From a virus (taxonomy: Duplodnaviria > Caudoviricetes), in the IMG/VR virus record IMGVR_UViG_3300037516_000265, positions 1-34,052 of that record: 34,052 bases of DNA; one strand, 5' to 3'. Of this stretch, positions 6,678 through 28,077 are shown one piece after another. Under the pieces are notes generated by a model, which had not been told where the DNA came from, searched no databases, and was given only the letters and a program-made list of their open reading frames with translations. Position numbers and translations under genes: made by a program. Positions within the stretch are counted from its first letter, which is position 1; each line of letters opens with the position of its first letter.

Positions 6678-7174
6678 TCGTAATCTTCGTTTAAGTAATC
6701 TTCATAGTCTTCATAAAGTAAACTCTGTAATTGCTTTTTTGTTCTATTGGTGGTGTAGAATATACAAGAAAGTGATATCCCAGTCTCTTTTGAAAGCTCT
6801 CTCATCGATTTACCACTAGTAACGTATAGTTCAAATAGCATTTTGTCAAACCAATCGACATTGTTTAGCTCGTCTCTAACGCGTTTATTTAACTCCTCGT
6901 ATGCAATTATACTTTCGGTCTCACAAACGGCTTCAGAAACGGTCTTATCTAGTTCAAACGTTAATGGTTCTTTCTTTAGGAAGTCGAAGTAAATGTTTCG
7001 TAAAGTAATCCATACGAATGATGACGTTATCTTTTGGTCTGGCTTGATGTATTTATCTAGTCGAAGGTACATTTCTTGCACTAAATCCTCGGCTTCAGTC
7101 TTCGCGCCAAAGGACCGAGCGATATTCACCCAGTCCTTATGTTTTTGTGCTATTATTTCTATTTGCTTAATCAT
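6650..7174 (-). CDS. RNA polymerase sigma-70/ECF-like sigma factor
   Basis: Region 2-like AEDLVQEMYLRL...FVWITLRNIYFDFLKK; region 4 HTH SMRELSKETGISLSCIF; ATG at 7174 preferred over the track start at 7225. Confidence 0.85.
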   Translation of the reverse strand: MIKQIEIIAQKHKDWVNIARSFGAKTEAEDLVQEMYLRLDKYIKPDQKITSSFVWITLRNIYFDFLKKEPLTFELDKTVSEAVCETESIIAYEELNKRVRDELNNVDWFDKMLFELYVTSGKSMRELSKETGISLSCIFYTTNRTKKQLQSLLYEDYEDYLNEDYEWLKEKHKD

Positions 7175-7445
7175 GCTTTGTAATCTTCCAACTTTGAATC
7201 GTATTGAAAAACACTCCAGCTTCACGTTTTGATTCTTGAGCTTTCAAGTTGTAGTCTACTTCGACAACATCACCAACTCGATTGTATTTAAGAACGTTAT
7301 CCACTTTTGCTTCACCAAATACTTCAAAGTTACATGACTGTGCATAATCTACGTCGTTTTCCATAACGTGAACATACAACTTTTTGTAGTTTCCTACTTC
7401 GATTACCTCTCCAATGTGTGTAATCACTCCAATAAATTTACCCAT
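7167..7445 (-). CDS. DUF3127-like OB-fold single-stranded DNA-binding protein
   Basis: YAQSCNFEVFG...VGDVVEVDYNLKAQE...FFNTIQSWKI matches the Bacteroidota DUF3127 pattern. Confidence 0.75.
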   Translation of the reverse strand: MGKFIGVITHIGEVIEVGNYKKLYVHVMENDVDYAQSCNFEVFGEAKVDNVLKYNRVGDVVEVDYNLKAQESKREAGVFFNTIQSWKITKHD

Positions 7446-12992: not shown

Positions 12993-13192
12993 AATTCTAT
13001 TTCGTTTAAATATTCATCAATTAAATATAACTTACCTTCTTTTTTTATAAATCCAAAGGCATCTTTTACATCGTAGTAATAGGAAAAAATTTCATGACTT
13101 TTACCTGACAATATCACATCGTACTCATTGATGCATTTTATGTATTTATCTATTGATTTTTTCATAGTCCTTTCATTTCTGGTAAATCCCAT
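12989..13192 (-). CDS. Hypothetical protein (up to 67 aa)
   Basis: ORF track; bridges primase and helicase with an ATGA overlap; start may be MKKSIDK. Confidence 0.65.
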   Translation of the reverse strand: MGFTRNERTMKKSIDKYIKCINEYDVILSGKSHEIFSYYYDVKDAFGFIKKEGKLYLIDEYLNEIEL

Positions 13193-15582
13193 ATGTCTGT
13201 TGATACCACTTTCTTTTGAGTTGTTATTTCAAACCATCTTTGACCTTGTGAATTACCTTCTTTATATTGCTTACCATGAAATTGGCAATACTTTTGAATC
13301 CACATGTTGAATCGTTTTGACTTTAGCCAGCTTCTAAAATCTTTATTTTCTTCAACAAAATTATCAAAGCAAATAGATTTAATGTGTCTATGGTCTTCAG
13401 AAATGTTTCCATCCCCCATCCACTCTAAGAATTCAGCAGAAGTCTCATTTATTAATTTACGATTTTCAAGATTTGTAAATTCAAATGGAACCAGTCCTTT
13501 CTCTAAATAATACTTTAAGCAATTAATCATGAAGTGGTCGAACCTAGCCCATTCTTGTGAGTTCCAGTCATCAAACAGCATGTGTCCAAATTCATCTAAT
13601 GGTGTGTGATTTGAATTAAAATAACTACTCATTTCTACCTCAAATTTTCTACGTTCAAAAGAACCACCAACACCACCAATAGTGTAGTTAGTTGTAATAA
13701 TTATTTTAGGAGATTTATTTACAGGAAGTTTAACAGCATCCTGACCTTTGTATTCCAAAGTTATCCCTTCAGTAATTAAAGAAAATAGATATTCAAAATT
13801 AAAGTTTTTCTTAACGTCATCAAATACTAACAACTGAGTGTCTACCGGAACTGCTTGGTAAGGGAATGACTTGTTAAATTCAAATGTTTTACCATCTATA
13901 GATGCTACTTTCTTCATTTTAGATAGTGCATTCCAAAATAAAGATTTACCACTACCACCATTTGGATTGTCTGAAATAGTTTCGTCGTTAAAAATAATTG
14001 CTTTATTGTTTGCGCTTGTCTTGTAGCTATGCATTAAATACCCTATAACACTTTTTAAAGAGTTGTATTTGTTTACATTTTTACTGCTTGCTAGCCATAG
14101 GAATGTCCTAAACTCACTTTCGTGGTGGTCTGCATCTATAAAGTCTCTATCAATTACTTGTTTCTTCCATACAAACCCATTTAGATTTTCATATTCTACC
14201 TTTTCAAATCTATCTTTGAATATTTTCAAAGCGCAATTCTTATAATAAATTATAGAAAAGTCTGGACCATCTTCCTCTATGTTAAATTTTGCAGTTTCTA
14301 ACATGGATAAGTATTGTGGTGTGAATGACTTTGTAGAGCCAGCAACTAAATCAAATGGATCTAAGTTGTCATTGTTCAATAGTTCATTTAACACATGGTC
14401 TTTAACTTGAAATTCCGTAACCTCGTCAACAAAATTACCATCCTTAGTAATGAAAGTAAATGTTTTTGATTTGTCAATAGGGAAATATTTAAAGAAGTTT
14501 TTATTTTCTAAATAGAATTTAAATTTATGGTGTGAAATAGTTAGTTTACCATCTTCATTGTAAGTCCAGAACTGATTAACATTAATTTTCTTTTTTTGCT
14601 CTAAAATTTCTGCTTCAATTTTTTCTTTAGAAAGTTCTGAGAATTGACTTGAAATATAATCATTTGATTTACCAACTAAAACCATATTGGAAATAGTCTT
14701 AATCTTTTGCTTATCTTCAAATTGTTTACTGCCAAAGTTAGAAGTATGCTTATAAGCTGAATTTATAAGTGCTAATATTTCATTACTATCAAAGTCTTTT
14801 TGTTGATTAGCTAAGATATATTTTTCAGCAATGTACTTTTCAATCCCAAAATCATTAAATGACAATGCTAATTTATGAAACGAATTGTTTCTATTAGTCC
14901 CATTGTACGACTTTTTAAACCATACCATTAATCTATTAGCAATTTGGTCTTGATCTACCAAAGGGATGTTCGTTACTACTCCTAATGTATTATTTATTTC
15001 TACTAATTCAGTTTGGATAAAGTCAACGTATAGACTAGATTCTTGGTTAATGTAAATATTAGGATCGTATGATTCAAAACATAGTCTAGAAATGTCTTGA
15101 CCTGATGTGTCAATTACACCTTCTCCATACTCTTTGTTTACCCAATTATAATAAGCTACAATTGATTTATAGTATTTATTATACTCGTCGTTTGATTCAA
15201 TTGGTGGTATTCTAACTAATGCTTTTAAACCATCCCCTGAAGGAGATACCCAACAAGCATTAATGTATTCATTGTTTGATAACTTTTCTTTTAATTCTTT
15301 TACTAAATCAAAGCTTTTTAACTTATCGAAATCAAGTATACATAATCCACTTGCTTTTTTTAATTCTGCTTTAGCTCTTTTGTTAAATGTCCCAGCAAAA
15401 GTAACAGCAGATAAAGAACCTTTAATCTCTTTCTTTTTTACGTCATCTAATTCAGAACGTAAAGATTCAATAGTTTTTCTAACATATCCATCTCTAATTC
15501 TTTCTAGGTAATATATAGCATCTTTAGGTCTTCCAACTGGTACTACTGAAGTTTTGTTTTTGTATAGGTCTATTAAATTCAT
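13162..15582 (-). CDS. Primase-helicase: BT4734/VirE-N AEP-type primase, PriCT, SF3/D5-like helicase
   Basis: SGLCILDFD, WVSPSGDGLK, DISRLCFESYDP (VirE-N); RNNSFHKLA (PriCT-like); GGSGKS Walker A, VFDD Walker B, IIITTN motif C. Confidence 0.88.
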   Translation of the reverse strand: MNLIDLYKNKTSVVPVGRPKDAIYYLERIRDGYVRKTIESLRSELDDVKKKEIKGSLSAVTFAGTFNKRAKAELKKASGLCILDFDKLKSFDLVKELKEKLSNNEYINACWVSPSGDGLKALVRIPPIESNDEYNKYYKSIVAYYNWVNKEYGEGVIDTSGQDISRLCFESYDPNIYINQESSLYVDFIQTELVEINNTLGVVTNIPLVDQDQIANRLMVWFKKSYNGTNRNNSFHKLALSFNDFGIEKYIAEKYILANQQKDFDSNEILALINSAYKHTSNFGSKQFEDKQKIKTISNMVLVGKSNDYISSQFSELSKEKIEAEILEQKKKINVNQFWTYNEDGKLTISHHKFKFYLENKNFFKYFPIDKSKTFTFITKDGNFVDEVTEFQVKDHVLNELLNNDNLDPFDLVAGSTKSFTPQYLSMLETAKFNIEEDGPDFSIIYYKNCALKIFKDRFEKVEYENLNGFVWKKQVIDRDFIDADHHESEFRTFLWLASSKNVNKYNSLKSVIGYLMHSYKTSANNKAIIFNDETISDNPNGGSGKSLFWNALSKMKKVASIDGKTFEFNKSFPYQAVPVDTQLLVFDDVKKNFNFEYLFSLITEGITLEYKGQDAVKLPVNKSPKIIITTNYTIGGVGGSFERRKFEVEMSSYFNSNHTPLDEFGHMLFDDWNSQEWARFDHFMINCLKYYLEKGLVPFEFTNLENRKLINETSAEFLEWMGDGNISEDHRHIKSICFDNFVEENKDFRSWLKSKRFNMWIQKYCQFHGKQYKEGNSQGQRWFEITTQKKVVSTDIWDLPEMKGL

Positions 15583-18174: not shown

Positions 18175-18199
18175 AAAAAAACCAACTATATTAGTTGGT
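18175..18199 (-). terminator. Rho-independent terminator
   Basis: ACCAACTA-ATA-TAGTTGGT followed by a T run. Confidence 0.75.
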
Positions 18200-18423
18200 C
18201 ATTTTCTTAACATGTATTTAATTGGATTAATATTGACAAAGGTAAATTTATTATCTATTCTTTGCATTATACCTTTATATTTTTTCATTCGTTTGTAACA
18301 GCATATTCTACATTCTATTGTCACACCTTTATCTGCTTCACGTGTGTATTTAGATGTATTTACATGAAACATTATTAATGGATATGTTTTCTTACATCCA
18401 AAACATTTTTTTGTGCTTATCAT
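18199..18423 (-). CDS. Small CxxC...CxxC zinc-finger protein
   Basis: KKCFGCKK...F...ECRICC. Confidence 0.75.
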   Translation of the reverse strand: MISTKKCFGCKKTYPLIMFHVNTSKYTREADKGVTIECRICCYKRMKKYKGIMQRIDNKFTFVNINPIKYMLRK

Positions 18424-18935
18424 AACAAATTAATTAACGCTTGGTTATATGCACGACTTGCTTCTAATTCATTAGTAAAATATCCTAAATGATTTAATTT
18501 ATTTTTTATTTTTATGTAAGAAATCCATTTTTTAGCCTTTTTATTCCATGATACACCTATATACATTGAAGATTTAAATTTTTGAGATTTCCCAACGTTA
18601 AATCTATTCGATACAATCTGTAAATTTTCTAATTTATTATCTGATTTATTTTCATTTATGTGGTCAACTACTAAGTTATGACCACATACAATATGGTTTA
18701 AAAAAGCCATTGCAACTAATTGGTGAGTTTTAAATTCTTTTCTGATTCCGTCTTTAGTTAAAGTAACTCTTAAATATCCAAATTTATTAAAATGTTGCTT
18801 AATCATTTTTTCTTTGCTTACTCTATCTCCATTGCCAGTTATTATTACTCTTGACAATGATTTAACGTTACCTAAGTTGCTTACTTGATATATTCCCTCG
18901 TATGTAGGTATATCCTTCCAAATTTCTTCTTGCAT
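18420..18935 (-). CDS. NUMOD4-HNH-AP2 homing endonuclease
   Basis: EIWKDIPTYEGIYQVSNLGNVKS, VDHINENKSDNKLENLQ, YIGVSW..W...HLGYFTNELEASRAY. Confidence 0.92.
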   Translation of the reverse strand: MQEEIWKDIPTYEGIYQVSNLGNVKSLSRVIITGNGDRVSKEKMIKQHFNKFGYLRVTLTKDGIRKEFKTHQLVAMAFLNHIVCGHNLVVDHINENKSDNKLENLQIVSNRFNVGKSQKFKSSMYIGVSWNKKAKKWISYIKIKNKLNHLGYFTNELEASRAYNQALINLL

Positions 18936-18937
18936 AA

Positions 18938-19030
18938 TTTACGTTTTTATTCACGTTGTTAAAAAAGAATGGAGCAGGAACGTGAACCTTTTGCATAAGA
19001 CCGCTAAGCCTTAACTCCATCGCAAATATA
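18938..19030 (-). ncRNA. Structured 5' leader C: three-way-junction RNA whose loop is complementary to two sites before the HNH start
   Basis: TATATTTG; ATGGAGT/GCTCCAT closing stem; TAAGGC[TTAGCG]GTCTTA; AGG[TTCACGTT]CCT; T run; then AACGTGAA and AACGTAAA just before ATG. Confidence 0.65.
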
Positions 19031-19035
19031 CTAAA

Positions 19036-19305
19036 TTATAATGAATTATATATCGCTTTTTCTTGTAAACTTAAATCTTCATATCTTGCACAAAATCCAC
19101 GCAACATATTTTCCTCTGTGTCGTAAGCTGCTGTCTTGCTTCCTAACACCGCTTTAGAACTAATGTTATACTCACGTTCATTTTCTAGTTTTAAGTTCGC
19201 TAAATAGCCCACAGATACCTTATACTTCTTTTTTAATCGATATGCCGAATAGAACATTACGTTCCATTTTATTTCAGCTCTTAATTCTTTACTAATACCT
19301 GCCAT
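19036..19305 (-). CDS. Hypothetical protein (89 aa), possible HTH
   Basis: ORF track; SAYRLKKKYKVSVGYL is HTH-like. Confidence 0.7.
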   Translation of the reverse strand: MAGISKELRAEIKWNVMFYSAYRLKKKYKVSVGYLANLKLENEREYNISSKAVLGSKTAAYDTEENMLRGFCARYEDLSLQEKAIYNSL

Positions 19306-27123: not shown

Positions 27124-28077
27124 CTAATTAGCGGAGTTAGTGATTCCGTATGTTACGATATCAGAAACTGAGTGGTAGTTTACCGCGTAACCAGCTCTCA
27201 TTACAACTCTTACATTGTCATCTCCTAATGTCTCAGCAGTGTCAATCAAACGTACTTCGTTAGCATCGTTCAATAAACCACAACCGAAGAATAAGTTAGA
27301 AGTTTGAGCAGCTAACATTTGTTGTGCAGTCAATCCGTTTGCTACGAATAATGGAATACCACCATAAGTCAAAGATCCGTTAGTATACCATTGTGTACCT
27401 TTATTGTCAGTACCATTGTTAGATGTAGCAGCTACACCGAAACCACCTAATGCAGAGATGTAAGATTTAGCGATGTTTTGAGATACATAAATCTTCAAAT
27501 CGTCAGCTCCGTATACTGCAGCAGGGATAGCTTTGTAAACTTTCTCTAACTCTTCGATAACGTTTGATGCAGTAACAGTTGTTCCAGCAACCTCGTTAGC
27601 AGTTGGTAAAGCAGCGTCAGCAGTTAACAAAGTCATGATACCAGCAACTTGTCCGTCGGTAGCATTAACACCATTCCAAATAGAAGATTCAATTGCAGCA
27701 GCAACTTTCTCAACTACGAATGCAAGTAAGTAATCAGCAAAAGATTTAGCTAAAACTTTGTTTGCAGAATACCCCATTTCTTCTGATTGCCAAGAAGTGA
27801 TGTAGTCTTTTTTACATAAAGATAAATTAACTTGGAAGTTCTCTAAAGTTAATGTACGTTCTGTAATTGTTACCGTAGAAGTAGCAGAGAAATCACAGCT
27901 TGCATTTGCAAGAAGTCCGTCTGTACTCAATTTCGAAATTACCGCTTTGTAAGCGATGTTAGGCATGATAGTCATACCTCCGTTAGATAATGTGTTACCG
28001 CTTAATAAAGCAGCTTTAACCCACATTCCTGAATGTTGACCACTATATGTAGTCGTTAATGATGTGCTTGTTGCCAT
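27124..28077 (-). CDS. Major capsid protein
   Basis: 317 aa after the scaffold, followed by a strong terminator; HK97-fold-like VAAAIESSIWNG, GGIPL. Confidence 0.85.
   Translation of the reverse strand: MATSTSLTTTYSGQHSGMWVKAALLSGNTLSNGGMTIMPNIAYKAVISKLSTDGLLANASCDFSATSTVTITERTLTLENFQVNLSLCKKDYITSWQSEEMGYSANKVLAKSFADYLLAFVVEKVAAAIESSIWNGVNATDGQVAGIMTLLTADAALPTANEVAGTTVTASNVIEELEKVYKAIPAAVYGADDLKIYVSQNIAKSYISALGGFGVAATSNNGTDNKGTQWYTNGSLTYGGIPLFVANGLTAQQMLAAQTSNLFFGCGLLNDANEVRLIDTAETLGDDNVRVVMRAGYAVNYHSVSDIVTYGITNSAN

Follow-up and report, generated by a model that had tools for sequence, protein, structure and literature searches.

Introduction

Small branched RNAs placed in the leader of the transcript they are thought to repress have been described in phages, the closest to the element considered here being c4 of P1 and P7 (Rfam C4, RF01695) and CI of P4. 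Each of these has two complementary sites, and a passage of PMC4825925 reports that CI pairs with seqA and seqC; c4, an RNA of 77 nt according to a title in the reference list of PMC8546580, is said in an excerpt of the same article to act in trans on ant, and both RNAs are presented as processed substrates of RNase P in a passage of PMC5499578. A table row in PMC10695390 also entered the comparison made below. RNA structure limits the translation of mobile endonucleases in T-even phages too, where, as excerpted from PMC2988022, the I-TevI/II/III, segB and mobE genes have simple cis hairpins at the ribosome binding site, which are bypassed from a late promoter.

Structured RNA candidates from IMG/VR lying within 25 bp of NUMOD4/HNH genes can be found in table rows of Fremin et al. 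2023 (PMC10690425), namely DNAVirus_1203 (96 nt, 18 sequences) and DNAVirus_8377 (105 nt, Bacteroidetes, terminator-positive), and the accessible portion of its main text mentions neither HNH nor NUMOD. Since these NUMOD4-adjacent candidates are unnamed, the scaffold reported here, compared with them by table rows, may already be catalogued anonymously. A literature search that included the available portions of Weinberg 2010 and Weinberg 2017 returned no description of the element, and the available part of the Minerva preprint (10.64898/2026.09.22.753630) does not describe it.

Here we report on a leader RNA preceding an endonuclease gene in a phage genome. Judging from sequence comparison, it is a real and conserved family, a self-targeting leader RNA of the c4/CI type that probably works like c4 and CI and is a member of neither. 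The family is absent from Rfam 15, and the three-way co-variation of one loop with two targets is unusually clean.

Genomic context and layout of the leader

The window analysed is the whole virus record of 34,052 bases. It has direct terminal repeats, its long ORFs are nearly all on the minus strand, and Pfam identifies genes for a terminase, a portal protein and a prohead protease. The endonuclease has NUMOD4 and HNH_3 above the Pfam cut-off and an AP2 match below it, and its best tblastn matches among cultured phages fall in Polaribacter, Flavobacterium and Cellulophaga phages, which makes a Flavobacteriales host likely. Read from 5' to 3' on the minus strand, the leader is composed of a -7 promoter, a three-way junction, a U-rich tract, two sites complementary to loop L3 and the AUG. 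The features of the region are the following:

19036..19305, minus strand: upstream flank gene, 89 aa, no assigned function (homologue comparison)
19030-19023, minus strand: Bacteroidota -7 promoter element (TAnnTTTG), TATATTTG (sequence; consensus from an excerpt of PMC6847099)
18969..19020, minus strand: three-way-junction RNA, 52 nt (fold, covariation, model R1)
19020-19014 with 18975-18969, minus strand: stem P1, 7 bp, ATGGAGT/GCTCCAT (sequence, fold)
19018-19017, minus strand: predicted transcription start (4-5 nt spacing from the -7 box, excerpt of PMC6847099)
19013-19008 with 19001-18996, minus strand: stem P2, 6 bp, TAAGGC/GTCTTA (sequence, fold)
19002..19007, minus strand: loop L2, UUAGCG (sequence)
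18989-18987 with 18978-18976, minus strand: stem P3, 3 bp, AGG/CCT (sequence, fold)
18986-18979, minus strand: loop L3, variable specificity loop, DNA TTCACGTT, RNA UUCACGUU (sequence, loop comparison)
18968-18961, minus strand: U-rich tract after P1, TCTTTTTT, candidate leaky terminator or linker (sequence, T content)
18957-18950, minus strand: target 1, DNA AACGTGAA, RNA AACGUGAA, -22 to -15 from the AUG (sequence)
18945-18938, minus strand: target 2, DNA AACGTAAA, RNA AACGUAAA, -10 to -3 from the AUG (sequence)
18420..18935, minus strand: free-standing NUMOD4-HNH_3(-AP2) endonuclease gene, 171 aa (Pfam, PHROGs, ORF list)
18199..18423, minus strand: downstream flank gene, 74 aa, weak Lar-like PHROG match (PHROGs, homologue comparison)

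A bidirectional terminator-like hairpin at 18180-18200 ends the transcription unit 3' of the downstream flank gene.

The preliminary description of this DNA had reported a Y-shaped fold of 52 nt, its loop and two targets, and each of them was found where it had been placed, the fold being the minimum-energy structure of the element. Two nucleotides separate the -7 element TATATTTG from P1, and 4-5 of the 7 bp of P1 fall within the predicted primary transcript. The complementarity of L3 is also as described: it extends over 8/8 positions of target 1 (computed duplex -8.1 kcal/mol) and 7/8 of target 2, where there is one C-A mismatch (-3.4 kcal/mol); target 2 takes in the A at -3, and 2 nt separate it from the ATG at 18935. 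The U-rich tract (18961..18968) is not called a terminator by a simple terminator scan. As a single sequence, the folding was not significant (z -1.28, with 22/200 shuffles equally stable), and the 80.5 bits given to the element by model R1 were obtained with the window sequence as part of the R1 training set. The 8-mer of target 1 (AACGTGAA) recurs in the window, on the minus strand at 7221-7228, and a single 8-mer match is not unusual here. It is therefore the comparative evidence, in which the stems co-vary and loop and targets change together, that sets the element beyond chance, rather than the lone fold or the 8-mer.

In the same genome, the loop 8-mer and its complement both occur without mismatch in an ssb-like ORF (7167-7445), at 7221-7228 and 7365-7372, probably by chance. 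The apparent GTG start of a sigma-like ORF (7221-7228) was considered as a target in trans and discarded, because the site is internal to the ssb ORF upstream and the sigma-like ORF more likely starts at an ATG that overlaps the ssb stop codon.

A conserved family of leader RNAs

The endonuclease homologue search gave 39 loci, and in the leaders of the 24 loci whose match starts near the N-terminus the element was present by eye in 11. Early patterns produced mostly chance matches, and two of them specified target letters and were used for discovery alone; in the later blind scans loop L3 and the targets were left unspecified. A scaffold-only parser accepted 42/51, 83/106, 5/74 and 24/112 loci; over all loci it yielded 93 unique elements, one of which was dropped at a contig end, and 80 of the resulting 92 have a blind-scan copy. 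Subfamily A, which includes this genome, has P1 stacked straight on P2, a YGYAAR junction and a 3-bp P3; subfamily B is distinguished by GGA-UA-G, a GAHA junction and a P3 of 5-6 bp. In the 23 sequences of subfamily A 98.1% of the stem cells are paired (slid controls 38-45%) and 11/16 pairs show two-sided changes, with which RNAalifold agrees, and in the 16 sequences of subfamily B the values are 91.9% and 10/17; the parser demanded pairing, which inflates the paired percentages and not the two-sided changes. Model R1, of subfamily A, scores several B elements weakly at the correct position (10-16 bits) and two intermediates at 26-34 bits, so that a common ancestry of the two subfamilies is plausible.

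The Bacteroidota -7 consensus is TAnnTTTG, and the start site is expected 4-5 nt further on, as reported in an excerpt of PMC6847099. In subfamily A, where the parser did not require it, the -7 box is found in 42/44 elements, with the invariant first G of P1 lying 3-6 nt past it in 42/44. Given this distance, a primary 5' end is predicted, and the RNA would be transcribed from its own promoter with no leader for RNase P to remove; the processing from a leader that had been proposed is thus not supported for this transcript, and RNase P might still cleave transcripts reading through from upstream. A TTG at -33, found in only 17/42 A and 17/49 B elements, is for that reason uninformative. The U-tract is short, with the longest T run of at most 4 in 16/43 A and 23/49 B elements, and several scan patterns demanded T's at its position.

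Membership in the c4/CI families did not hold. The Rfam scan gave no match in the window at E<=5 and none at the element at E<=10, RF01695 alone had no match in the window, Rfam C4 had none in 38 homologous loci and, in the Rfam 15 scans overall, nothing rose above any gathering score. As in c4 and CI, complementary sites that co-vary lie on the same transcript; however, the sites of the known RNAs flank the RNA, whereas here both are downstream, in tandem, before the AUG, and a downstream match is found in 92/92 elements while an upstream match of at least 6 nt occurs in just 1/92. The present RNA differs also in its size of ~55 nt, its predicted primary 5' end, its single variable loop, its Bacteroidota promoter, a palindromic L2 in most variants and a nuclease or primase gene downstream. 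A c4/CI-like logic, with an RNA that would repress its own transcript, is nevertheless plausible. The three-stem layout, the UAG and GAAAA junctions and the U tail recall the int-alpA motif (RF02996), reportedly a product of the study of Weinberg 2017, but the best score reached with it was 25.5 bits (subfamily-B element L172) against a gathering score of 35.8, in 1/38 loci and nowhere in the window. From the T-even hairpins the element is set apart by a promoter upstream of the whole fold, by the pairing of a loop with single strands and by two sites outside the conserved structure. The likeness to a tRNA, noticed from the beginning, is one of topology and does not go beyond it: ARAGORN finds 0 tRNA genes in the window, the T-loop-like letters are not conserved, L3 varies freely and CCA lies inside P1.

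Co-variation of the loop with its targets

A loss of the loop-target complementarity in homologues had been named beforehand as the observation that would speak against the preliminary description; the complementarity was, instead, upheld in two sets of elements. The first consists of 24 loop types, counted with one variant merged and including one (L120) known solely from the early discovery patterns that specified target letters. Within the 45 nt that follow P1, 24/24 loop types had a Watson-Crick match of 6 nt or longer, compared with 19/552 mismatched pairings, and a second non-overlapping site scoring at least 5 was present in 22/24, compared with 37/552; in 100,000 permutations, the mean of the first-site or of the second-site score was reached 0 times. 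For the second set L2, L3 and the targets were all unspecified, and acceptance depended on scaffold and promoter. Among the matches listed, which comprise 177 unique parses, 28/28 accepted parses match over at least 6 nt, 24/28 with a second site, and 10/148 scorable rejected parses match, 4 of these 10 being elements that fail the promoter test alone. The two sets overlap, and jointly hold at least 35 loop strings, at least 11 of them new in the second set and some only one base apart.

Held-out phages gave the same picture. The cultured phage P12002S has a subfamily A element (48.2 bits) and C3_41T2LP a subfamily B element (51.6 bits) ahead of a helix-turn-helix gene, both keeping the match with a loop absent from the models; in the cultured phage P12002L, the loop-target match is kept in a subfamily B element of 49 bits. 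On these comparisons, loop and targets very probably pair as RNA. The deviations from perfect complementarity are 13 G-U, 8 A-C and 52 other (p=0.38), those flanked by pairs 10 G-U, 2 A-C and 7 other (p=0.039), and those in the seed 9 G-U, 4 A-C and 4 other, compared with 1.6, 6.0 and 10.4 in mismatched pairings (p=0.27); the tests involve related sequences and the excess is modest, and the lean towards G-U is supportive, not decisive, for a pairing of RNA over DNA.

The genes headed by the element bear on two further explanations. Among 31 downstream ORFs scanned of 76, 23 have NUMOD4 and/or HNH_3, 5 are BT4734-like, 1 is GIY-YIG, 1 is another HNH and 1 has a weak PadR-like match. The RNA had been linked at first to the HNH gene, but the subfamily-A RNA, same loop included, precedes BT4734-like primase genes as well as HNH genes. 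The primase genes headed in this way are those of L178, L184, L188, L268 and L326; an R1 search gave no match at the BT4734-like gene of the window itself (13162-15582).

In one of these explanations, the three matching 7-9-mers are operator boxes on DNA, one inverted and two direct, through which the downstream protein represses its own gene, the fold being incidental. An excerpt of PMC2988022 mentions an operator site of I-TevI, the downstream proteins carry NUMOD, AP2 or HTH domains, and the G-U bias is merely modest. We nonetheless consider operators very improbable, since the same loop stands before unrelated proteins (HNH and BT4734-like), the inverted copy is invariably in the loop of a co-varying stem and U-G pairs are common in the stems. 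The occurrence of one loop before unrelated proteins argues equally against an OMEGA-like guide or cofactor of the nuclease, in which the variable loop would set the cleavage site. A conserved scaffold with a variable segment adjoining HNH and GIY-YIG genes is what a guide would look like, but the matching sites are in the RNA's own leader, 7-9 nt are short for DNA targeting, and non-nuclease genes are also preceded by the element (the BT4734-like 5/31 scanned). Moreover, in P12002L the 7-nt complement of each loop is found near its own start codon and at most one other of 91 ORFs, and we regard the guide as hardly credible.

The palindromic second loop

The second loop shows a property absent from the preliminary description. 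In subfamily B, L2 contains a palindrome of at least 4 nt in 16/16 types, with several different hexamers, and of at least 6 nt in 12/16, compared with 2.1 expected and a maximum of 8 in 5,000 shuffles; loop L3 has a palindrome of at least 6 nt in 0/16 loop types. In subfamily A, with L2 unspecified and among the matches listed, UUAGCG was found in 16/28 and a 6-nt palindrome in 10 of the 12 others. The L2 of this genome, UUAGCG, is not palindromic (computed self-duplex -2.1 kcal/mol). Since L2 is a 6-nt palindrome in most variants, its sequence suggests RNA-RNA dimers. The HIV-1 dimer initiation site, whose loop has a 9-nt purine-flanked layout, is likewise a stem capped by a palindromic hexamer loop; it differs from L2 in its separate origin, in that dimers are here only predicted, and in that the palindrome is absent from the L2 of this genome. 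In that site, palindromic hexamer loops form kissing dimers, as stated in an excerpt of PMC5192399.

Possible mode of action

The loop-target match that related phages keep while the letters change points to a block of translation, and we lean, if slightly, towards a self-targeting RNA that pairs at the two sites before the AUG, at least one of the pairings probably being contributed by a second RNA molecule. Transcription would begin at P1, a fraction of the transcripts would stop at the U-tract, releasing a short RNA with a free loop, and this RNA, on accumulating, would bind the -22 to -3 region of the read-through mRNA, so that the nuclease would be shut off after an initial burst. In variants with a palindromic L2 two copies could kiss, and their two L3 loops would fill both sites; elements with unlike loops would not cross-repress. 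Because the U-tract comes before both targets, transcripts that end in it keep L3 free and could act in trans; one loop with two conserved sites, together with a self-complementary L2, fits an intermolecular and concentration-dependent shut-off. According to an excerpt of PMC6847099, initiation in Flavobacterium (F. johnsoniae) depends on a lack of structure upstream and on adenines at -3, -6, -12 and -13. In the window the targets flank the adenines at -12 and -13 and include the A at -3, all positive determinants in F. johnsoniae, and therefore pairing should block initiation. Points against this model are the non-palindromic L2 of this genome, the weakness of its target 2 (-3.4 kcal/mol) and the shortness of the U-tract. 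If the predicted repression is true, the element shows how free-standing endonuclease genes limit themselves in a phylum lacking Shine-Dalgarno sequences; it could account for specificity groups among mobile nucleases, and would provide orthogonal repressors of translation from nature for use in Bacteroides and Flavobacterium.

More tentatively, the element may be a self-dimerising riboregulator of ~55-65 nt, in which two copies kissing through their palindromic loops would clamp two tandem sites and make it a cooperative sensor of copy number built of RNA only. Its reprogrammable loop of 7-9 nt would sort the mobile endonucleases and the replication genes of Bacteroidota phages into dozens of orthogonal immunity groups, and a resident cassette would silence a newcomer with the same loop, driving loop diversification.

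A purely cis action would be permitted by the linker between P1 and target 1, which is short and fairly constant (4-15 nt, median 9-10 nt). In this reading the read-through mRNA would fold into a pseudoknot, loop L3 pairing with one target or the other in alternative registers, and translation would be damped, constitutively or co-transcriptionally, with no free small RNA. The pairing uses chiefly the 3' 5-7 nt of loop L3, and in H-type pseudoknots too it involves mainly the 3' part of the loop; the weak U-tracts and the non-palindromic L2 of this genome also accord with it. On the other hand, one loop is unable to pair with two sites simultaneously, yet two targets are retained per loop (22/24 loop types; 24/28 among the matches listed), the palindromic L2 of most other variants has no cis partner, and the three-way co-change required by at least 35 loop strings is more easily explained by selection for trans specificity. 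We judge the cis reading rather unlikely.

Alternatively, the pairing might act chiefly on transcription, by premature and possibly Rho-dependent termination downstream, as in P4 CI, with the block of translation secondary. An excerpt of PMC4825925 describes termination by CI RNA through pairing with seqA and seqC, and the HNH stop codon overlaps the start of the next gene in the ORF list, which makes polarity possible. Both targets, however, are 3' of the U-tract and so have no means of gating termination at it, in nearly all elements target 2 ends 0-12 nt 5' of the AUG, the upstream target exists in 1/92 elements and the terminator scan found no hairpin between the targets and the ORF; transcription as the chief level of action seems improbable to us.

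Distribution and probable mobility

The unit formed by promoter, RNA and endonuclease is likely a mobile cassette, a feature that the preliminary description did not contain. In L003, a relative, homologues of the two flank genes of the window abut via an ATGA overlap with no cassette between them, and L003 carries its own cassette at another place; similarly, a B cassette follows gene 32 of P12002L and is lacking at that place in P12002S. The 59 ORFs upstream of elements belong to 35 families. P12002L (L914) has an A and a B element at 13098-13156 and 27938-28002, with different loops and an HNH gene after each. Six contigs have two elements each, and the loops differ in 6/6; these pairs are few, were picked by eye and include two with the same loop pair, making them weak evidence. 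The Polaribacter phages P12002L (one A, one B) and P12002S (one) and the Bacteroides phage C3_41T2LP (one) are carriers in which the element can be tested. A blastn search of the window leader against cultured phages gave no match.

In the bacterial chromosomes searched, the element was uncommon. R1 matched 1/5 genomes at E<=1 and 3/151 at E<=0.01, none with promoter and targets by eye, and R2 matched 16/151 and 15/151 at E<=0.05, G001 alone being strong (80 bits); 28 of the 35 weak R2 places were viewed, with the full layout in none. Four equal R2 matches of 24 bits (L645, L659, L662, L663) fall in one genome, G184, and may belong to a repeated mobile element; in the one viewed there is a B-like fold with a palindromic loop and no evident promoter or targets. 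Segatella copri HDD04 carries one element in its chromosome (L469, NZ_CP152484.1, about 902,096-902,160), and dRNA-seq data are available for this strain; the accessible part of the corresponding preprint (10.1101/2024.04.05.588293) makes no mention of phage.

Other leaders in the same genome

Two more leaders of the window, both on the minus strand, were noted. At 16427-16310 a -7 promoter is followed by a hairpin, and its loop, CATCCTAC, complements GTAGGATG, found in the loop of a terminator-like hairpin further downstream; this leader precedes an ORF without assigned function, whose true start is probably after the hairpin. At 11790-11680 there is a like two-hairpin leader before a second NUMOD4-HNH gene, with loop TGTCGCTG facing CAGCGAC, and two-hairpin leaders similar to the latter are found in L006, in L013 and in Flavobacterium phage tooticki6-1 (L682).
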